NCBI RefSeq assembly: GCF_003334405.1
Contig: NZ_QOWM01000007.1
Source: Escherichia coli
GTDB taxonomy: Bacteria > Pseudomonadota > Gammaproteobacteria > Enterobacterales > Enterobacteriaceae
Direction: 5' to 3' (one strand)
DNA length: 64,000 bases
Part shown: piece after piece, positions 1,776-48,955 of the stretch
Position numbering within the stretch: the stretch's first letter is position 1
How the letters are laid out: each line of letters starts with the position of its first letter
Made by a program: the position numbers and the translations under genes
Notes under the pieces: generated by a model
The model's input: the letters and a program-made list of their open reading frames with translations, nothing else
What the model was told of the DNA's origin: nothing
Database searches by the model: none

Positions 1776-1949
1776 ATTTTTCTCATTTTGATTTTATCAA
1801 TTTGATTATTATTTATCATAAAGAAACGTCGCGAGATTATTAAAGAATATCCATTAATGTGCAATTGAAATGTGATAATTATCACTGAACCGTTGTTGTC
1901 ATTTGTTTTACAAAAGCAAGGGATTAAATCTCCTCCAATGGACAAAAAA

Positions 1950-3284
1950 ATGAATAATGACAATACCGATTACGTGAGTAATGAATCAGGGACGCTTTCG
2001 CGATTATTTAAACTACCTCAGCATGGGACCACCGTCCGCACAGAATTGATTGCGGGGATGACCACTTTTTTAACCATGGTGTACATCGTTTTTGTGAACC
2101 CGCAAATCCTCGGCGCGGCACAAATGGACCCGAAAGTGGTGTTTGTTACCACCTGTTTGATTGCCGGTATCGGCAGTATTGCGATGGGGATATTTGCTAA
2201 CTTACCCGTGGCGCTGGCTCCGGCAATGGGGCTGAACGCCTTCTTTGCCTTCGTGGTCGTGGGGGCGATGGGCATCTCCTGGCAGACCGGGATGGGCGCA
2301 ATATTCTGGGGCGCAGTTGGACTATTTTTGCTCACGCTGTTTCGTATCCGGTACTGGATGATCTCCAACATTCCCTTAAGTTTACGTATTGGTATCACCA
2401 GCGGAATTGGATTATTTATCGCCTTAATGGGATTAAAAAATACTGGCGTTATTGTCGCCAATAAAGACACGCTGGTGATGATTGGCGATTTAAGTTCTCA
2501 CGGCGTGTTGTTAGGTATTTTAGGGTTTTTTATTATAACCGTGTTGTCATCACGTCATTTTCATGCCGCGGTGCTGGTTTCTATTGTGGTGACGTCTTGC
2601 TGTGGATTATTTTTCGGTGATGTTCATTTTAGCGGCGTCTATTCCATTCCGCCTGATATTAGCGGCGTCATTGGTGAAGTAGATTTGAGCGGCGCGTTAA
2701 CACTTGAACTCGCCGGTATCATTTTCTCCTTTATGCTGATCAACCTATTTGATTCATCAGGAACATTAATTGGTGTAACTGATAAAGCGGGCTTAATAGA
2801 TGGTAACGGTAAATTCCCCAATATGAATAAGGCGCTGTATGTTGATAGCGTCAGTTCGGTGGCGGGTGCGTTTATCGGCACCTCGTCTGTTACTGCCTAT
2901 ATTGAAAGTACTTCTGGTGTGGCAGTCGGTGGCCGCACGGGGCTGACTGCGGTTGTGGTTGGCGTTATGTTCCTGTTGGTTATGTTCTTCTCACCGCTGG
3001 TGGCGATAGTTCCTCCTTACGCAACCGCCGGAGCGTTAATCTTTGTTGGCGTGCTGATGACTTCGAGCCTGGCGCGCGTTAACTGGGATGATTTTACCGA
3101 ATCGGTGCCTGCGTTTATTACCACGGTGATGATGCCCTTTACTTTCTCGATCACCGAAGGGATTGCACTCGGCTTTATGTCGTACTGCATCATGAAAGTA
3201 TGCACCGGGCGCTGGCGCGATCTGAACCTGTGTGTGGTGGTGGTCGCAGCTCTGTTTGCACTGAAGATTATTCTGGTGGATTAG
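1950..3284 (+). CDS. adeQ: adenine permease (NCS2/AzgA family)
   Basis: Multi-TM ORF matching E. coli AdeQ/YicO; ORF track begins at 1872 but the recalled N-terminus MNNDNTDYV starts at the ATG at 1950 (alternative ATG at 1938). Confidence 0.85.
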   Translation: MNNDNTDYVSNESGTLSRLFKLPQHGTTVRTELIAGMTTFLTMVYIVFVNPQILGAAQMDPKVVFVTTCLIAGIGSIAMGIFANLPVALAPAMGLNAFFAFVVVGAMGISWQTGMGAIFWGAVGLFLLTLFRIRYWMISNIPLSLRIGITSGIGLFIALMGLKNTGVIVANKDTLVMIGDLSSHGVLLGILGFFIITVLSSRHFHAAVLVSIVVTSCCGLFFGDVHFSGVYSIPPDISGVIGEVDLSGALTLELAGIIFSFMLINLFDSSGTLIGVTDKAGLIDGNGKFPNMNKALYVDSVSSVAGAFIGTSSVTAYIESTSGVAVGGRTGLTAVVVGVMFLLVMFFSPLVAIVPPYATAGALIFVGVLMTSSLARVNWDDFTESVPAFITTVMMPFTFSITEGIALGFMSYCIMKVCTGRWRDLNLCVVVVAALFALKIILVD

Positions 3285-3309
3285 TAACTGGCGAGGGTTT
3301 CCAGATATC

Positions 3310-3789
3310 ATGAGTTCTGATTACGCAGGAGAACTCATGATCTGGATAATGCTCGCCACGCTGGCGGTAGTGTTTGTGGTTGGTTTTCGGGTGCTGACAT
3401 CCGGGGCCAGAAAAGCGATTCGCCGTCTCAGCGATCGGCTGAACATCGATGTCGTACCCGTGGAGTCGATGGTCGATCAAATGGGAAAGTCAGCTGGTGA
3501 CGAATTTTTACGTTATTTGCATCGTCCGGATGAGTCGCACCTGCAAAACGCCGCGCAGGTGTTGCTCATCTGGCAAATTGTCATTGTCGATGGTAGCGAA
3601 CAGAACCTGCTGCAATGGCATCGGATTTTACAAAAAGCTCGCCTCGCCGCGCCGATTACCGACGCTCAGGTCAGGCTGGCGCTAGGTTTTCTGCGCGAAA
3701 CCGAACCTGAAATGCAGGATATTAATGCTTTTCAGATGCGCTATAACGCGTTCTTTCAGCCTGCCGAGGGCGTTCACTGGTTGCATTGA
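3310..3789 (+). CDS. yicN: DUF1198 family inner-membrane protein YicN
   Basis: 159-aa ORF with N-terminal hydrophobic helix, conserved synteny between adeQ and nepI; true start may be the internal ATG at 3337. Confidence 0.75.
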   Translation: MSSDYAGELMIWIMLATLAVVFVVGFRVLTSGARKAIRRLSDRLNIDVVPVESMVDQMGKSAGDEFLRYLHRPDESHLQNAAQVLLIWQIVIVDGSEQNLLQWHRILQKARLAAPITDAQVRLALGFLRETEPEMQDINAFQMRYNAFFQPAEGVHWLH

Positions 3790-3999
3790 AACCGTTTCGT
3801 CTTATCAGCCTACAGACCGCGCCTGACCTGTCGGGTGGATAAGACGTTCACGCCGCATCCGGTAATCTTTGCCCTGTTCCGTTTCGATCTTAACTCCAGC
3901 TCAAGCAACACCGTAAAAGTTGCAAAAACGTTAAATGCGTCACACATTTCAATGTTAAAGTGGTCGGCTTTTCCCCTGAAACATGCCACGGGTAACACC

Positions 4000-5190
4000 A
4001 TGAGTGAATTTATTGCCGAAAACCGCGGCGCGGATGCCATCACCCGACCGAACTGGTCAGCCGTTTTCTCGGTGGCGTTTTGTGTCGCCTGTCTGATTAT
4101 CGTTGAGTTTTTGCCCGTCAGTTTGTTGACGCCAATGGCCCAGGATTTAGGCATTTCGGAAGGGGTTGCCGGGCAATCGGTGACCGTGACCGCCTTTGTG
4201 GCAATGTTTGCCAGTTTGTTTATTACCCAGACAATTCAGGCTACTGACCGCCGCTACGTTGTTATTTTGTTTGCCGTTTTGCTGACGCTCTCCTGCTTGC
4301 TGGTTTCCTTTGCTAACTCATTCAGTTTGCTTTTAATCGGTCGTGCCTGTCTGGGGCTGGCGCTGGGCGGGTTCTGGGCGATGTCGGCGTCGCTGACCAT
4401 GCGTCTGGTGCCGCCGCGTACGGTGCCGAAGGCGCTGTCGGTGATCTTCGGCGCGGTTTCTATTGCGCTGGTGATTGCCGCGCCGTTGGGCAGTTTTTTA
4501 GGCGAGCTTATCGGTTGGCGCAATGTCTTTAATGCGGCGGCGGTGATGGGCGTGCTGTGTATTTTCTGGATTATCAAATCATTGCCTTCACTGCCAGGCG
4601 AACCCTCGCATCAGAAACAAAATACTTTCCGCTTATTACAACGTCCGGGTGTGATGGCAGGGATGATCGCCATCTTCATGTCTTTCGCCGGGCAGTTTGC
4701 TTTCTTCACGTATATTCGCCCGGTGTATATGAACCTGGCGGGATTCGGCGTGGATGGCTTAACGCTGGTGCTGTTGAGTTTTGGTATCGCCAGCTTTATT
4801 GGTACGTCGCTTTCGTCGTTCATTCTTAAACGTTCGGTAAAACTGGCCTTAGCAGGCGCGCCGTTAATACTGGCTGTGAGTGCGTTGGTACTGACGTTGT
4901 GGGGAAGCGATAAAATCGTTGCTACCGGCGTGGCGATTATCTGGGGGCTAACTTTTGCATTGGTTCCCGTCGGCTGGTCAACGTGGATCACCCGCTCGCT
5001 GGCCGATCAGGCAGAAAAAGCCGGGTCTATTCAGGTGGCGGTTATTCAGCTTGCTAATACCTGTGGCGCGGCAATCGGCGGTTATGCGCTGGATAATATT
5101 GGTCTGACTTCGCCGTTGATGTTGTCCGGCACATTGATGTTGCTGACTGCATTGTTGGTTACTGCAAAGGTGAAAATGAAGAAATCCTGA
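4000..5190 (+). CDS. nepI: purine ribonucleoside efflux pump (MFS)
   Basis: ORF track starts at 3835, but the MFS protein begins [10 protein letters not shown] at the ATG at 4000 (396 aa); 12-TM pattern. Confidence 0.88.
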
Positions 5191-8786: not shown

Positions 8787-9422
8787 TCTTCTGAATCACC
8801 GGGCGAAAAAATATAACTGAGTTACAAATAAGTACCAGTCGAATGAGTATTGTATTAAGAATTTTTGAGTATCGCTGATACAACCAGAAAGCAATGCTAG
8901 CGCAATATTATAGGGCCAGCAATTGAGATTATTAGTAAAAGCATGTTAAGAATTAATTACCGAATTTATATATTAATTATAGTAAGGCAATGAGCTATTT
9001 TTGATAGTAAAAATAAAACAAGTTGATTTGATATATTAAATGAACAAATTAATCTTGATGGCAGTCTGATTATTGGTGAAGTTTATAGTCAGTTTTTTTC
9101 GCCAGCGGTTAAAGAAATAGAATAGTCGTATAAAAAAGGGTGTTCTGGGGCGAGTAAAACAACATCTTCACCTTAATGGCGATACAGTTGGCTGAGAGTC
9201 AGCAGGGGGGCAAATCACCTGCAAATAAACACGGCGCATACTGGCGTGAATATCGCGGATGCGTTCGAGGACAGAAGAACCGACAGGCGGATTCTTCAGC
9301 CGCTCATCGTCCATCACAAAACCTTAGACCAGGTATTCCTGAAGCCGATTGAATATTGAGCAGTAGAAAATATCTGGATTGACAGTATTACAAGGGGTTG
9401 GAGAACGTCAGGAGAGGCATTT

Positions 9423-39797: not shown

Positions 39798-40587
39798 ATT
39801 AGAAGAGCCACTTGCCACACTCTGGCGTGGTAAAGATGCCTTTGCAGAAGTTAAAAAACTGAATGGCGAGGTCTTCCGTGAACTGGAGACGCGTCGCACA
39901 TTACGCTTTGAACTGGCCGGCAAAAGTTATTTCCTCAAATGGCACAAAGGGACGACCCTAAAGGAGATTATAAAAAATCTGCTCTCATTGCGGATGCCCG
40001 TTTTAGGTGCAGACAGAGAGTGGCACGCTATTCATCGACTGCATGATGTCGGTGTTGATACGATGCACGGAATAGGATTTGGTGAAAAAGGGTTAAATCC
40101 ATTAACTCGCACATCATTTATTATTACCGAAGATCTCACTCCCACAATTAGCCTTGAAGATTATTGTGCAGATTGGGCGGTCAACCCGCCTGATGTACAT
40201 ATTAAGCGTATGCTGATCGCGCGTGTGGCAACCATGGTGCGCAAAATGCATGCAGCAGGGATTAATCACCGTGATTGTTATATCTGCCACTTTTTACTCC
40301 ATTTGCCATTTACTGGCCGGGAAGATGAATTAAAAATTTCGGTTATCGATCTGCACCGGGCACAGATACGTGCAAAAGTACCACGTCGTTGGCGGGATAA
40401 AGATTTGATTGGTTTATATTTCTCATCAATGAATATTGGTCTGACGCAGAGAGATATCTGGCGATTTATGAAGGTTTATTTTGGGATGCCTTTACGCGAT
40501 ATTTATAGACTTGAGATTGATTTACTTAAAAAGGCAAGGATTAAAGCAGGAAAAATAGAAGCAAGAACAATAAGAAAAAACTTGTAA
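39790..40587 (+). CDS. waaP: LPS core heptose(I) kinase
   Basis: 265-aa kinase-like ORF matching WaaP; overlaps the waaG 3' end. Confidence 0.95.
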
Positions 40588-40619
40588 ATAGTATTTTATT
40601 ACAAAAAGGGATTCTAAAA

Positions 40620-41600
40620 TTGTTGAAATATAGAAACTTCGTTGCTAAGAAGAAAAATTTATACCAAAACGAAGTGTCGTATGTTAAAAATTTACATATT
40701 GCACTATGCTTTGACCGTGAATTCATAATGCCAGCGGGTGTTGCATTATATTCAATTATATCCAACAATAGACATATTAACCTTCATTTTCACCTTCTTA
40801 TATCAGGCATAGAAGAAAAGGAGTGTTCAGCTTTTTACGAACTAGAAGGTCCTAATACATCAATATCTGTATATTATATAACTGATAAATTTGACATTAA
40901 TCCGGATACATTAGTTCTTGGTATTCCTTTATCAACATGTTTACGTTTTTTAATCCCAGAAGTTATTGATGATAAAATAAATAAGATACTTTATCTTGAC
41001 TGTGATGTCATATGTAATGGTCCTTTAGATGAACTGGTTGATTATAATTTAAATGCTGATATTGCATGTGTAATTCCAGATTCGCCAGAAATGCAAGAAC
41101 GTGTAAAAAAATTAGACTATGGCATTGAGTTTATTAATTATTTTAATGCCGGGGTTATGTTTATTAATACCAGCGAATGGAAAAAAAATAATATAACACA
41201 AAAAGCGTTAGAAATGATCAACAGTGGAAAAGTATATAGGTATGCAGATCAGGATGTGCTCAATATTTTACTTAATGGACGAGTGCATTACCTTGATAAG
41301 AAGTACAATAATAAGACAACATTGTCAGTACGATGTGATGAAGAACAAAAAAACTTGCCCAACACAATTATAATGCATTATGTTACCCAGAATAAACCAT
41401 GGTACAAAATATTTAGAGCACAAAATTTTGATCATTATTTTTCAAATTCTCCTTGGAAGAACCATAAAAGAAATCTAGCTCCATCATCAAGTGAGATTAG
41501 GTTAAAGTCTAAAGTTTTTTGGCTAGAAGGAAAATATTGTAAAGCCATTTCTTATTATTATAAGTATTTACTTGTTAAATTATTTGGCTTAAAGATTTAG
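40620..41600 (+). CDS. GT8-family LPS outer-core glycosyltransferase (paralog 1, at the position waaS occupies in K-12)
   Basis: 326-aa ORF with GT8 motifs seen directly: YLDCDVIC (DxD), YFNAGVMFIN, ADQDVLN, QNKPWYK; TTG start per ORF track, so the start is uncertain; N-terminal region is divergent (ALCFDREF where the other two have AYGxDxNY-type). Confidence 0.75.
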   Translation: MLKYRNFVAKKKNLYQNEVSYVKNLHIALCFDREFIMPAGVALYSIISNNRHINLHFHLLISGIEEKECSAFYELEGPNTSISVYYITDKFDINPDTLVLGIPLSTCLRFLIPEVIDDKINKILYLDCDVICNGPLDELVDYNLNADIACVIPDSPEMQERVKKLDYGIEFINYFNAGVMFINTSEWKKNNITQKALEMINSGKVYRYADQDVLNILLNGRVHYLDKKYNNKTTLSVRCDEEQKNLPNTIIMHYVTQNKPWYKIFRAQNFDHYFSNSPWKNHKRNLAPSSSEIRLKSKVFWLEGKYCKAISYYYKYLLVKLFGLKI

Positions 41601-42693: not shown

Positions 42694-43712
42694 TGCAGCA
42701 GGTTTTTTTCCAGGAGACTGAGTTTCTCAATTCGGTTATTGATTATAATCATAAAATAGAAGCAGAAAATCTTTGTCTGGATATTGCTTATGGGACTGAC
42801 AAAAATTTTCTTTTTGGATGCGGAATATCGATTGCTTCAATATTAAAATATAATGAAGGAAATCAATTATGCTTTCATATTTTTACTGATTATTTCGGTG
42901 ATGACGATCGCAAATATTTTGATGCCCTGGCCAGGCAATATAAAACAAGAATTAAGATATATTTAATTAATGGTGATCGACTCCGTTCATTACCCTGCAC
43001 CAAGAACTGGACTCATGCTATTTATTTTCGTTTTGTTATCGCCGATTACTTTTTTAATAAAGCACCCAAAGTTCTTTATCTGGATGCAGATATTATTTGT
43101 CAGGGAACTATAGAACCACTTATCAATTACACGTTTTCTGAACATACAGTCGCAATGGTTGTTACAGAAGGACAAAAAGACTGGTGGGCAAAACGTGCTC
43201 ATTCGTTAGGTGTTGCTGGGATTGCTAATGGTTACTTTAACTCCGGTTTTTTACTGATTAATACTAATCAATGGACGAATGAGCGGGTTTCTGCACGGGC
43301 CATTGCAATGTTAAGTGATCCAGAGATAGTCAAAAAAATAACACATCCTGATCAGGATGTATTAAATATGTTATTGGCAGACAAACTTGTTTATGCTGAT
43401 ATTAAATATAACACTCAGTTTAGTTTAAATTATCAACTAAAAGAAAGTTTTAAAAACCCAGTAACTAACGATACAGTTTTTATTCATTATATTGGTCCAA
43501 CTAAACCCTGGCATGACTGGGCCTGGGATTATCCAATATCACAAGCTTTTATGGCGGCAAAAAATGCTTCACCATGGAAGGATACTGCGTTATTGAAACC
43601 GGTTAATAGTAATCAATTAAGATACAGTGCTAAACATATGTTGAAAAAAAAGCAATATATCAAAGGATTTGACAACTATCTTTTGTATTTTATAAAAAAG
43701 CTAAAGCATTAA
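42693..43712 (+). CDS. waaO: GT8-family LPS outer-core glucosyltransferase (WaaO/WaaI-like, by motif and position)
   Basis: 339-aa ORF with motifs IAYGTDKNF, YLDADIIC, YFNSGFLLIN, PDQDVLN, GPTKPWH; start overlaps the waaB stop; the name is assigned by synteny only. Confidence 0.7.
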   Translation: MQQVFFQETEFLNSVIDYNHKIEAENLCLDIAYGTDKNFLFGCGISIASILKYNEGNQLCFHIFTDYFGDDDRKYFDALARQYKTRIKIYLINGDRLRSLPCTKNWTHAIYFRFVIADYFFNKAPKVLYLDADIICQGTIEPLINYTFSEHTVAMVVTEGQKDWWAKRAHSLGVAGIANGYFNSGFLLINTNQWTNERVSARAIAMLSDPEIVKKITHPDQDVLNMLLADKLVYADIKYNTQFSLNYQLKESFKNPVTNDTVFIHYIGPTKPWHDWAWDYPISQAFMAAKNASPWKDTALLKPVNSNQLRYSAKHMLKKKQYIKGFDNYLLYFIKKLKH

Positions 43713-43724
43713 TACTGATAATCT

Positions 43725-43848
43725 ATACTCTAAATAATTCGAGTTGCAGGACAAAAAGCCAGTGGCGTTTTGAGGAACGCTTGCGTTGGCCCTGAAATGC
43801 CGAGTAACTCGCCGATGCAGCACATGCAACTTGAAGTATAACGAGTAT
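43725..43848. repeat. ERIC/IRU-related imperfect palindromic element with divergent core
   Basis: Termini atactc...ttcgagttgca and tgcaacttgaagtataacgagtat are inverted complements and resemble the ends of the ERIC copy at 51001..51133; occupies the 163-bp gap between two GT8 genes. Confidence 0.45.
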
Positions 43849-43875
43849 ATAAAGTAATGATATAAGGATAGCCTT

Positions 43876-44892
43876 GTGAACTCATTTCCTGCCATAGAGA
43901 TAGATAAAGTTAAAGCCTGGGATTTTAGGCTTATTGATGAAAATACTGCTGAAAGTTTAAATGTTGCCTATGGTGTCGATTCCAATTATCTTGATGGTGT
44001 AGGTGTTTCCATTACTTCAATTGTCATTAATAATCGACATGTTAATCTTGATTTTTATATTATTGCTGATGTTTATAACGACGATTTCTTTCAAAAAGTT
44101 GAGAAACTTGCTGAGCAATACCAATTAAGAATCACACTTTATAGAATAAATACTGATAATCTTCAGTGCCTGCCTTGTACACAAGTCTGGTCAAGAGCAA
44201 TGTACTTCCGTTTATTTGCTTTTCAATTATTGGGAGTAACACTTAATCGTTTGCTTTATCTTGATGCCGATGTAGTTTGTAAGGGAAATATTAGTCAACT
44301 ATTGCATTTAGAGTTTAATGGAGCGGTGGCTGCAGTAGTCAGGGATGTAGACCCAATGCAGGAAAAGGCGGTAGTCAGATTATCTGATCCTGAACTTCGG
44401 GGGCAGTATTTTAATTCTGGTGTCGTTTACTTAGACCTAAAAAAATGGACAGAAGCAAAACTAACCGAAAAAGCACTGTCTATTCTTATGAGTAAAGATA
44501 GTATTTATAAGTATCCTGACCAGGACGTTATGAATGTCCTACTAAAAGGGATGACAATATTCCTGCCACGTGAGTTCAATACTATATATACAATAAAAAG
44601 TGAGTTAAAAGATAAAACGCATCAAAAATATAAAGAGTTGATAAAAGAGGATACTCTTCTTATTCATTATACTGGGGCCACCAAGCCGTGGCACAAATGG
44701 GCAATTTATCCATCGGTAAAATACTATAAAATAGCTTTAGAAAGATCCCCCTGGAAAGATGACTCACCACGAGATGCAAAATCAATTATTGAATTCAAAA
44801 AAAGATATAAACATCTGTTAGTGCAACATCATTATATCTCAGGACTCATTGCAGGAGTGTGTTATCTTTGCCGAAAATATTACCGTAAATAA
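43876..44892 (+). CDS. waaJ: GT8-family LPS outer-core glucosyltransferase (WaaR/WaaJ-like, by motif and position)
   Basis: 338-aa ORF, GTG start with AAGGA SD 7 nt upstream; motifs VAYGVDSNYL, YLDADVVC, YFNSGVVYLD, PDQDVMN, GATKPWHKW; the name is assigned by synteny only. Confidence 0.65.
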   Translation: MNSFPAIEIDKVKAWDFRLIDENTAESLNVAYGVDSNYLDGVGVSITSIVINNRHVNLDFYIIADVYNDDFFQKVEKLAEQYQLRITLYRINTDNLQCLPCTQVWSRAMYFRLFAFQLLGVTLNRLLYLDADVVCKGNISQLLHLEFNGAVAAVVRDVDPMQEKAVVRLSDPELRGQYFNSGVVYLDLKKWTEAKLTEKALSILMSKDSIYKYPDQDVMNVLLKGMTIFLPREFNTIYTIKSELKDKTHQKYKELIKEDTLLIHYTGATKPWHKWAIYPSVKYYKIALERSPWKDDSPRDAKSIIEFKKRYKHLLVQHHYISGLIAGVCYLCRKYYRK

Positions 44893-44909
44893 CATTTAAC
44901 TGGTTTAAC

Positions 44910-45608
44910 ATGATTCAGAAGAATAAAATCAAAGATTTAGTTGTTTTTACCGATGAAAATAACTCAAAGTATCTCAATGTATTAAATGACTTTCTTTCTT
45001 ATGATATTAATATCATCAAAGTTTTTCGTTCTATAGATGATACAAAAGTCATGCTTATTGATACCGATTACGGTAAATTGATACTTAAAGTTTTTTCGCC
45101 TAAAGTAAAACGCAACGAACGTTTCTTTAAATCTCTTTTAAAGGGAGATTATTATGAACGCCTTTTTGAGCATACTCAAAAAGTGCGTAACGAGGGGCTA
45201 CATTCTCTCAATGATTTTTATTTGTTGGCAGAACGGAAAACATTACGTTTTGTCCATACTTATATCATGCTTATCGAATATATCGATGGCGTAGAGTTGT
45301 GTGATATCCCCGATATTGATGAAACTTTAAAAAATAAAATTCAACAATCAATTCGTTCATTACACGAACACGGTATGGTATCTGGTGATCCTCACCGCGG
45401 TAATTTTATTATTGAAAATGGTGAAGTACGCATTATTGATCTTTCAGGAAAACGGGCATCTGCACAACGTAAAGCGAAAGATCGTATTGATTTAGAGCGA
45501 CATTATGGTATTAAGAATGAGGTTAAAGATCTCGGTTATTATCTTTTAGTTTATCGTAAAAAAATACGTAATCTTATGCGGCGTTTGAAAGGGAAGCCAG
45601 CACGATAA
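44910..45608 (+). CDS. waaY: LPS core heptose(II) kinase
   Basis: 232-aa kinase-like ORF (HGMVSGDPHRGNFII) matching WaaY. Confidence 0.88.
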   Translation: MIQKNKIKDLVVFTDENNSKYLNVLNDFLSYDINIIKVFRSIDDTKVMLIDTDYGKLILKVFSPKVKRNERFFKSLLKGDYYERLFEHTQKVRNEGLHSLNDFYLLAERKTLRFVHTYIMLIEYIDGVELCDIPDIDETLKNKIQQSIRSLHEHGMVSGDPHRGNFIIENGEVRIIDLSGKRASAQRKAKDRIDLERHYGIKNEVKDLGYYLLVYRKKIRNLMRRLKGKPAR

Positions 45609-45679
45609 AGTAAAAGTCTTACATTTAAACGTCTTCGTCAGGACATTTCTATGCGGAGTTCTTATTTCACAGGTTTATC

Positions 45680-46489
45680 ATGAAGAATATTAGATACATT
45701 GACAAAAAAGATGTTGAAAACCTGATAGAAAGTAAAACGTCTGATGATGTTATTATTTTTCTTTCCGGCCCCACATCGCAAAAAACACCATTGTCAGTGC
45801 TGCAGACAAGGGATGTTATTGCTGTCAATGGTTCTGCACAATATCTATTAAGTCATAATATTATTCCCTATATTTATGTACTTACCGATGTTCGCTTTTT
45901 ACATCAACGGCGTGATGATTTTTATAAATTTAGCCAGAGAAGTCGTTATACCATCGTAAATGTTGACGTTTATGAACATGCTTCTGAAGAAGATAAGCGG
46001 TACATCCTTCAAAACTGCCTGGTACTACGTTCATTTTACCGCAGAGAAAAAGGTGGATTGATCAAGAAGATCAAGTTTAATATTTTGAGCCGAATTCATA
46101 AAGAGCTCCTGATCTCTGTACCTTTTTCTAAAAAAGGTCGTCTGGTTGGCTTTTGCAAGGATATTAACCTCGGTTATTGTTCATGCCATACCGTTGCTTT
46201 TGCTGCAATCCAAATAGCCTATTCGCTGAAGTATGCTCGTATTATCTGTTCAGGCCTTGATTTAACGGGTAGCTGTTCGCGTTTCTATGATGAAGATAAG
46301 AATCCTATGCCCTCAGAGTTGACTCGGGATTTATTCAAAATTTTACCATTTTTCCGTTTTATGCGTGAAAATATAGAAGATATCAATATTTATAATTTAT
46401 CCGACGATACTGCAATTCAATATGATATTATTCCCTATATGAAAATATCCGAAATTGAAGAGCCGTGTGTTTATGAAAAAATAAGCTAA
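45680..46489 (+). CDS. waaZ: LPS core biosynthesis protein WaaZ (Kdo III-related)
   Basis: 269-aa ORF starting MKNIRYIDKKDVENL, collinear with recalled WaaZ. Confidence 0.8.
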   Translation: MKNIRYIDKKDVENLIESKTSDDVIIFLSGPTSQKTPLSVLQTRDVIAVNGSAQYLLSHNIIPYIYVLTDVRFLHQRRDDFYKFSQRSRYTIVNVDVYEHASEEDKRYILQNCLVLRSFYRREKGGLIKKIKFNILSRIHKELLISVPFSKKGRLVGFCKDINLGYCSCHTVAFAAIQIAYSLKYARIICSGLDLTGSCSRFYDEDKNPMPSELTRDLFKILPFFRFMRENIEDINIYNLSDDTAIQYDIIPYMKISEIEEPCVYEKIS

Positions 46490-46541
46490 TATTTTATATG
46501 TGTTTATTACGTGTTATAAATTATATTGGAGTTGGCTAATA

Positions 46542-47740: not shown

Positions 47741-48955
47741 TTTATTCCGCATTGCTAACAGTAAACCAACAATCAAGCCAATTGGTTTGAGATCAACTTC
47801 CTCGAAGTTACCTCGAATAATATAAAAGCTTACAAGCGTTAAAAATAGTAGTAATTGACCATTATAAGGAGTGACGACAACTGTTTTAAACGTTGCATTA
47901 GCTGTCTCTTTGATAATAGAGCCATACAGATAAAGTAAAGCGAGTAGTCCAGCCAAACCCGCTGCAAACCAAATTGACAAAACAACGTTGTGTGGCCCAA
48001 TGGATTGCCTGAACTTCCATGACGGAAAATCTACAACACGCTTATTATATATTGCATGGTAAATATCATCGCCGTAGCCATATCCCTTAAGAGGATTTTC
48101 CATAATTAATGTCCACGCCGTACCTTGAGTACCATTGGTATAGCGATAAGAACTGTCGGTCTGTTGAAGTTTATAAATAAGCCTGTCTTTACCAGCATGA
48201 TCACCTTTATAGGTAAATACACCCACTGCGGCAACAGAAATAACGATGGAAGTCAGCATCAATAATTTCCACTGACGATTTAAGATTAACCATAGCAGAG
48301 TCACTATGAATACTGCCAGCCATGCACCACGAGACAGCGTTCCTAATAGCAGAAATAAGAAAACTGCACTAAAAATTACGAATGCTATTTTATAAGAGGT
48401 TTTCTTGATAAGCCAAAGGTTTAATAATGCTGGAAACAGAAACACCATTGAATCGGAAATACTACGGTGTTCATAGGTGGAAAATGGCATTATTCCTTTA
48501 TTATAATCCTGAATATAAAGAATAAGTTCAACAAGACAACGTAAGCCAAGTCCGGTAACTAATGAGTATAGTACAATTTTACCAATGCTTTCATTATCTT
48601 CATCTTTTAATAATGCAGGTATAAGTAAACTATAGGCCAAAAATCCTTTAAGTACCGTATTACTGAATTCTTTAAAACTGATTTTCAGATCAGGTGATAT
48701 AAAAGTAGCATATAAAAGAATGAGTGATAGTGCCAGGACACTATAAAAAAGATTATTTTTATAGAGTACTTTAAATGTTCCCGGAGCACGAGAAACTTGA
48801 TAGATTACCGTAATAATCATTAGTATAGATATGATGTGTTTATAACGGGTTATACCATCAAGGAAAAAGGTTGCAATAAAGAGGAATACCAACGCTTTAT
48901 TCCAGTACGGTTTCCACTTTTCTTTATTACGTAGCGCCAGCGAGGCTGTTAACAT
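47738..48955 (-). CDS. waaL: O-antigen ligase
   Basis: 405-aa polytopic membrane ORF at the conserved waaL position; AT-rich. Confidence 0.88.
   Translation of the reverse strand: MLTASLALRNKEKWKPYWNKALVFLFIATFFLDGITRYKHIISILMIITVIYQVSRAPGTFKVLYKNNLFYSVLALSLILLYATFISPDLKISFKEFSNTVLKGFLAYSLLIPALLKDEDNESIGKIVLYSLVTGLGLRCLVELILYIQDYNKGIMPFSTYEHRSISDSMVFLFPALLNLWLIKKTSYKIAFVIFSAVFLFLLLGTLSRGAWLAVFIVTLLWLILNRQWKLLMLTSIVISVAAVGVFTYKGDHAGKDRLIYKLQQTDSSYRYTNGTQGTAWTLIMENPLKGYGYGDDIYHAIYNKRVVDFPSWKFRQSIGPHNVVLSIWFAAGLAGLLALLYLYGSIIKETANATFKTVVVTPYNGQLLLFLTLVSFYIIRGNFEEVDLKPIGLIVGLLLAMRNK

Follow-up and report, generated by a model that had tools for sequence, protein, structure and literature searches.

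The 174-bp spacer between the divergent adeD and adeQ genes of E. coli very probably serves as a control region shared by both genes, through which H-NS and CRP act. It occupies positions 1776-1949 of the window, that is, of the whole stretch of 64,000 nucleotides that was analyzed. H-NS silencing and IS activation have been known since 2002, and both genes have been known to be CRP-activated since 2021. Since both layers of control are already published, the region carries little weight as a discovery. The spacer is nevertheless no freely evolving AT-rich sink, as certain blocks within it are invariant over four enterobacterial genera. The conservation of one of these blocks points to a short, testable candidate element beside the ade start.

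The 1001 bases around the spacer match E. coli K-12 MG1655 at 100%. The list of open reading frames and the RefSeq annotation of the identical MG1655 stretch place adeD (ade, yicP), which encodes an adenine deaminase of 588 amino acids, at positions 9-1775 on the minus strand. The same RefSeq annotation places adeQ (yicO), the coding sequence of an adenine permease of 444 amino acids, at 1950-3284 on the plus strand, and its ATG at 1950 is kept in 13 related loci. The initial annotation had described a 175-bp gap between the two genes; the divergent gap is real, and its length is 174 bp. The two translation-initiation regions, 1767-1791 and 1934-1958, form a 25-nt imperfect inverted repeat that is 80% complementary. 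Both genes start with ATGAATAAT (Met-Asn-Asn), with a run of A just before. The repeat is probably a coincidence of AT-rich start contexts.

AT-richness of the spacer and silencing by H-NS

The spacer has a G+C content of 27.0%, against 49.1% for the window, and just 0.99% of 174-bp segments are equally low. It is also the most AT-rich of 21 intergenic gaps of at least 80 bp in a crude ORF-based gene map of the window, the next lowest having 36.7% G+C. These values, which rank the spacer in the lowest 1% of segments and lowest among the gaps, bear out the description of the region as extremely AT-rich. The lowest G+C content of any 174-bp segment here is 23.6%, at 1739-1912, so the AT-rich tract extends into the first ade codons. 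By composition, the full tract spans 1700-1949 with 30.4% G+C and takes in ~75 bp at the start of the ade coding sequence. The spacer contains 13 TpA steps, where 8.8 are expected per 174 bp. Runs of at least four A or T nucleotides are found at 1777-1781, 1786-1789, 1792-1795, 1906-1909, 1912-1915, and 1944-1950. Other blocks of at most 30% G+C occur in the window at 8800-9000, 40400-41500, 42700-46500, and 48350-48700, and some of them are longer than the ade spacer. Judged by map position, these blocks may lie within the LPS core (waa) region.

The initial annotation had also claimed phased A/T tracts. The periodicity of AA/TT dinucleotides at 10-11.5 bp was measured as Fourier power and compared with 1000 dinucleotide-preserving shuffles. 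Over 1700-2000 the signal is marginal, being reached by 2.6% of shuffles, but within the spacer itself it is not significant, with the maximum statistic reached by 16.8% of shuffles. The claim is therefore weakly supported: the A/T runs are present, and their phasing is not demonstrated. A wedge-model profile has curvature peaks of ~45 degrees at 1810 and ~50 degrees at 1938 (98.9th and 99.6th percentiles, respectively), both moderate and both outside the 15 strongest of the window. The high-affinity 10-mer TCGATAAATT is said to have been described by Lang et al. in 2007 as the consensus of the H-NS nucleation motif. It has no good match in this region, only matches with two mismatches at 1750-1759 and 1791-1800, and the counts of such matches across the window are no higher than in shuffles. 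A motif of this kind is not obligatory for H-NS targets. Prediction of curvature and H-NS binding, which the initial annotation had proposed as a check, thus gave moderate curvature and a 10-mer with two mismatches at best. The AT-richness of the spacer is real and exceptional for the window. Because phasing is not significant and curvature is moderate, what the sequence displays is AT-richness and no specific H-NS signature.

Petersen, Moller and Valentin-Hansen reportedly found in 2002 (JBC 277:31373) that ade is a cryptic gene under H-NS silencing and that insertion of IS elements in this region activates it. They are also said to have observed derepression of ade in hns mutants with an intact spacer, and H-NS footprints over the spacer. 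Of the papers that cite this work, one describes IS5 as activating the cryptic ade gene through relief of H-NS repression (PMC2753651), and another describes adeD as switched on by IS elements located upstream of it, whether between the two genes or within adeQ (PMC13274399). Insertions in the adeQ/adeD intergenic region were enriched again when adenine was cross-fed by a partner in coculture (PMC13274399). In a yicO deletion in which an outward Pkan promoter drives adeD (yicP), the phenotype was attributed by the authors to ade activation (PMC3809563). Published H-NS repression and IS activation support the statement that ade is cryptic or silenced in K-12 (PMC2753651, PMC13274399). The same genetics support the proposal, made in the initial annotation, that the AT-rich spacer is the target through which nucleoid proteins silence ade. 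Comparison with published ade regulation, which had also been suggested there, finds the same claim already in print in 2002. That reading is right and adds nothing beyond Petersen et al. 2002. The tract at 1700-1949 is likely to be H-NS-bound DNA, with the binding itself taken from the literature.

The CRP site and the candidate promoters

A CRP-type site, TGTGATAATTATCACT, lies at 1871-1886, centered at 1878.5, within the 22-mer AAATGTGATAATTATCACTGAA at 1868-1889. This site was absent from the initial annotation. It has one mismatch to TGTGA-N6-TCACA and is the sole match with at most one mismatch in the 64-kb window. The expected number of such matches is about 1.5 in 64 kb and ~0.004 in 174 bp. 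The half-sites TGTGAT and ATCACTG are invariant in a set made up of K-12 and seven non-Escherichia loci, which covers four genera (Escherichia, Citrobacter, Kluyvera, and Cedecea), and E. albertii carries TGTTAT. The central 4 bp vary, being AATT, TGCA, TGTA, or AACT. Invariant half-sites around a free center give the footprint that is expected of a CRP site.

Transcriptomes of crp deletions and CRP EMSA, published in 2021, identified adeD and adeQ as CRP-activated (PMC8085971). The distance from the center of the site to the start codon is 71.5 bp for adeQ and 103.5 bp for ade. On the plus strand, the sequence contains a -10-like TACAAA for adeQ at 1909-1914, with a predicted start near 1920, and a T-rich/TAAAA motif is kept there across genera. 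This -10 would put the CRP site near -41.5/-42.5 for adeQ. On the minus strand, a consensus scan gave a sigma-70-like promoter candidate for ade at 1815-1843, composed of a -35 TTAATA (1843-1838), a 17-bp spacer, and a -10 TATGAT (1820-1815). It predicts a start near 1807-1809, relative to which the CRP site would lie at about -70 to -72. The scan gave three further minus-strand promoter candidates. As geometric guesses from these predicted distances, CRP might act in a class II manner on adeQ and in a class I-like manner on ade.

Alignment placed the adeQ ribosome-binding region, AATGGAC, at 1937-1943 on the plus strand, with GGA 7-9 nt before the ATG. AATGGA is kept in 14/14 aligned sequences (AGTGGA in one Citrobacter locus), and TGGA is invariant. 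On the minus strand, a 4-codon mini-ORF, ATG AGA AAA ATA TGA (ATGAGAAAAATATGA), runs from 1786 to 1772, its stop codon and the ade start codon overlapping as ATGA. A 1-nt insertion in Escherichia sp. E1V33 and E. whittamii brings the mini-ORF ATG in frame with ade. Because of this shared frame, and because it lacks its own Shine-Dalgarno, the mini-ORF was rejected as an upstream ORF; it probably belongs simply to the ribosome-binding region.

The region is not purely a silencing target, given the conserved CRP site and the CRP activation of both genes in wild type (PMC8085971). For the same reasons, ade is conditionally expressed instead of simply dead.

Conservation of the spacer and of a block beside the ade start

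The adeD loci of other species were retrieved, giving an alignment of 14 sequences. Escherichia species, Citrobacter, Kluyvera, and Cedecea all keep the divergent adeD/adeQ pair, and their spacers measure 172-176 bp at 26-30% G+C. Invariant columns make up 39% of the spacer, compared with 7.7% of 4-fold degenerate adeD sites, and the spacer appears to be under selective constraint. The upstream region differs in more distant adeD loci (Morganella morganii, Serratia sp. DD3). At 2440-2500 of the retrieved loci, Morganella morganii has a dyad, TCACATTATCAATGTGA, in a 218-bp spacer of 44% G+C, and Serratia sp. DD3 has ATCAAAATGATAA / TTTATCAT upstream of adeD, similar to a block of the E. coli spacer described below, with no adjacent adeQ.

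Within E. coli, the spacer is found at a minimum of 95% identity in 5392 of 5426 complete genomes and at a minimum of 99% identity in 5020. In 23 genomes the flanks match and the spacer does not. This identity, together with the spacer blocks that are invariant in four genera, argues that ade may be a gene put to conditional use, for which nature provides a genuine inducing condition, and not a decaying cryptic gene.

IS insertions within the spacer are very rare in natural genomes. The spacer is IS-truncated in one genome, that of E. coli A30 (a horse isolate, NZ_CP092500.1), by an IS903-like (IS5-family) element of ~1056 bp at 3052-4107 of the retrieved locus. The element sits 51 bp upstream of the ade ATG and replaces 400 bp (window 1827-2226); The DNA that is lost in A30 includes the CRP site and the promoter of adeQ, together with 277 bp from the 5' end of that gene. 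From its position, this insertion looks like a wild equivalent of the IS-activated ade mutants obtained in the laboratory. Four split top matches carry IS1 at the locus. In both of those inspected, IS1 is inside a gene and not in the spacer: about 243 bp into the adeQ coding sequence in strain Z142-1, and about 171 bp into the adeD coding sequence in strain D72. The locus appears to be hit by IS in the wild mostly as gene disruptions.

Cross-genus alignment also identified a conserved block of 29 bp next to ade, at 1779-1807 on the minus strand (AATCAAATTGATAAAATCAAAATGAGAAA on the ade sense strand). In K-12 and the seven non-Escherichia loci, 27 of the 29 positions are invariant (1779-1799 and 1802-1807). 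The 7.7% of invariant 4-fold degenerate adeD sites refers to this same set, in which synonymous sites are nearly saturated. The block contains a Shine-Dalgarno-like GAGA, an extended -10-like TGATAAAAT (1791-1799), and alternating ATCAA/TTGAT half-sites in the dyad arrangement ATCAA-A-TTGAT-AAA-ATCAA. It is single copy, with no second occurrence elsewhere in E. coli genomes, and the literature searched contained no published description of it. A structured RNA element in the ade leader was rejected: an Rfam search of the leader gave no match at E up to 1, and its folding is no better than that of shuffles (z = +0.55). Most simply, the block would be the leader of ade with its ribosome-binding region, and a promoter may overlap it.

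The conservation of this block can also be read as that of an operator for a dedicated transcription factor, one that responds to purines or nitrogen for instance, so that this factor, and not H-NS alone, would set ade expression. We regard this as rather unlikely. Invariance at 27 of 29 positions over four genera with near-saturated synonymous sites speaks for an operator, as do the ATCAA-A-TTGAT-AAA-ATCAA dyads, the related pattern upstream of adeD in Serratia sp. DD3, and the failure of RNA structure or an Rfam family to account for the conservation. However, the Shine-Dalgarno and the possible extended -10 within the block by themselves demand conservation, a second copy of the block is not found elsewhere in E. 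coli genomes, and the literature searched offered no support for such an operator. Nor do PurR, FNR, or IHF fit: their consensus sequences were compared by eye with the conserved block and with 1820-1835, and all three were rejected. The FNR consensus has a spacing of N4, and the TTGAT-N3-ATCAA of the block is wrongly spaced for it; PurR has a half-site only, AAGAAACG, which is confined to Escherichia, and IHF has no consensus match on the stretches compared by eye. A weak Fur-box-like resemblance was also seen by eye. The adeD/adeQ spacer was identified by gSELEX as a target of PlaR (YiaJ) (PMC6958661). The PlaR box ATnTGAAACnnnGTTCAnTT has no spacer match with up to three mismatches, and it could not be placed in the spacer despite the gSELEX report. 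A regulator yet to be recognized might bind the block and work with CRP to overcome H-NS silencing in response to a natural signal, for instance the availability of adenine, purines, or nitrogen; this likewise seems doubtful. If true, it would explain the strict conservation of a "cryptic" gene and its spacer.

At the other extreme, the spacer could be an ordinary AT-rich promoter region, in which nucleoid proteins have no special role and whose composition reflects a pair of promoters, a ribosome-binding region for each gene, and the CRP site. The strong purifying selection on its blocks across genera fits cis-elements better than a generic H-NS sink, and the spacer lacks a strong H-NS motif, its phasing is not significant, and its curvature is no more than moderate. 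The CRP response of both genes in wild type (PMC8085971) agrees with this reading as well. Against it stand the published genetics, namely H-NS silencing and IS activation of ade (PMC2753651, PMC13274399). A G+C content of 27%, compared with at least 36.7% in the 20 other crude gaps, is also out of line with an ordinary promoter region. We therefore consider it very improbable that H-NS plays no particular part here, and prefer a region that is shared by H-NS and CRP.

Proposed mechanism and comparison with known systems

In the proposed H-NS/CRP mechanism, ~250 bp of AT-rich DNA, comprising the spacer and the 5' end of ade, would be coated by H-NS, and the ade promoter would be nearly silent in ordinary laboratory growth, in keeping with the published genetics. 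Loss of hns, or an IS in the spacer or at the start of adeQ, would turn ade on, as published; the insertion would part the promoter from some of the H-NS-binding DNA. The single mid-spacer CRP site would activate both genes at high cAMP. Its binding and the CRP dependence of the genes are published, and the class geometry is that predicted from the candidate -10 elements. The 29-bp block would act as the ade leader and ribosome-binding region, and a further extended -10 promoter, or else an operator, may overlap it. One point against the explanation is that an AT-rich spacer serving purely as an H-NS target would not usually be conserved so strongly.

The locus is the one studied in 2002 by Petersen et al.: the MG1655 sequence is 100% identical, and the claim, that of a cryptic gene silenced by H-NS and activated by IS elements in the adeQ-ade region, is the same. 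The present analysis adds the footprint across genera, a census covering 5426 genomes, and the conserved block close to ade.

The bgl operon is a cryptic operon that is activated by IS1 or IS5 insertion. It is silenced through a loop between two defined H-NS sites, of which one lies upstream and the other in bglG. The ade region resembles bgl in its AT-rich regulatory DNA, H-NS silencing, IS activation, and CRP-dependent promoter (PMC2753651; PMC9678765, PMC9499468). The two systems differ in that a downstream element in ade is only suggested, by AT-richness reaching the first ~75 bp of the coding sequence, and in that the spacer and CRP site of ade are common to a divergent transporter gene.

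Functional CRP sites are centered at -41.5, -61.5, -72.5, and so on. Divergent promoter pairs with one central CRP site, acting by class I or class II activation under the rules of Busby and Ebright, offer a further parallel; adeD/adeQ would be such a pair, with the class assigned from the predicted geometry. Unlike plain divergent CRP pairs, adeD/adeQ has H-NS silencing superimposed, which makes the CRP activation of ade weak in laboratory conditions.
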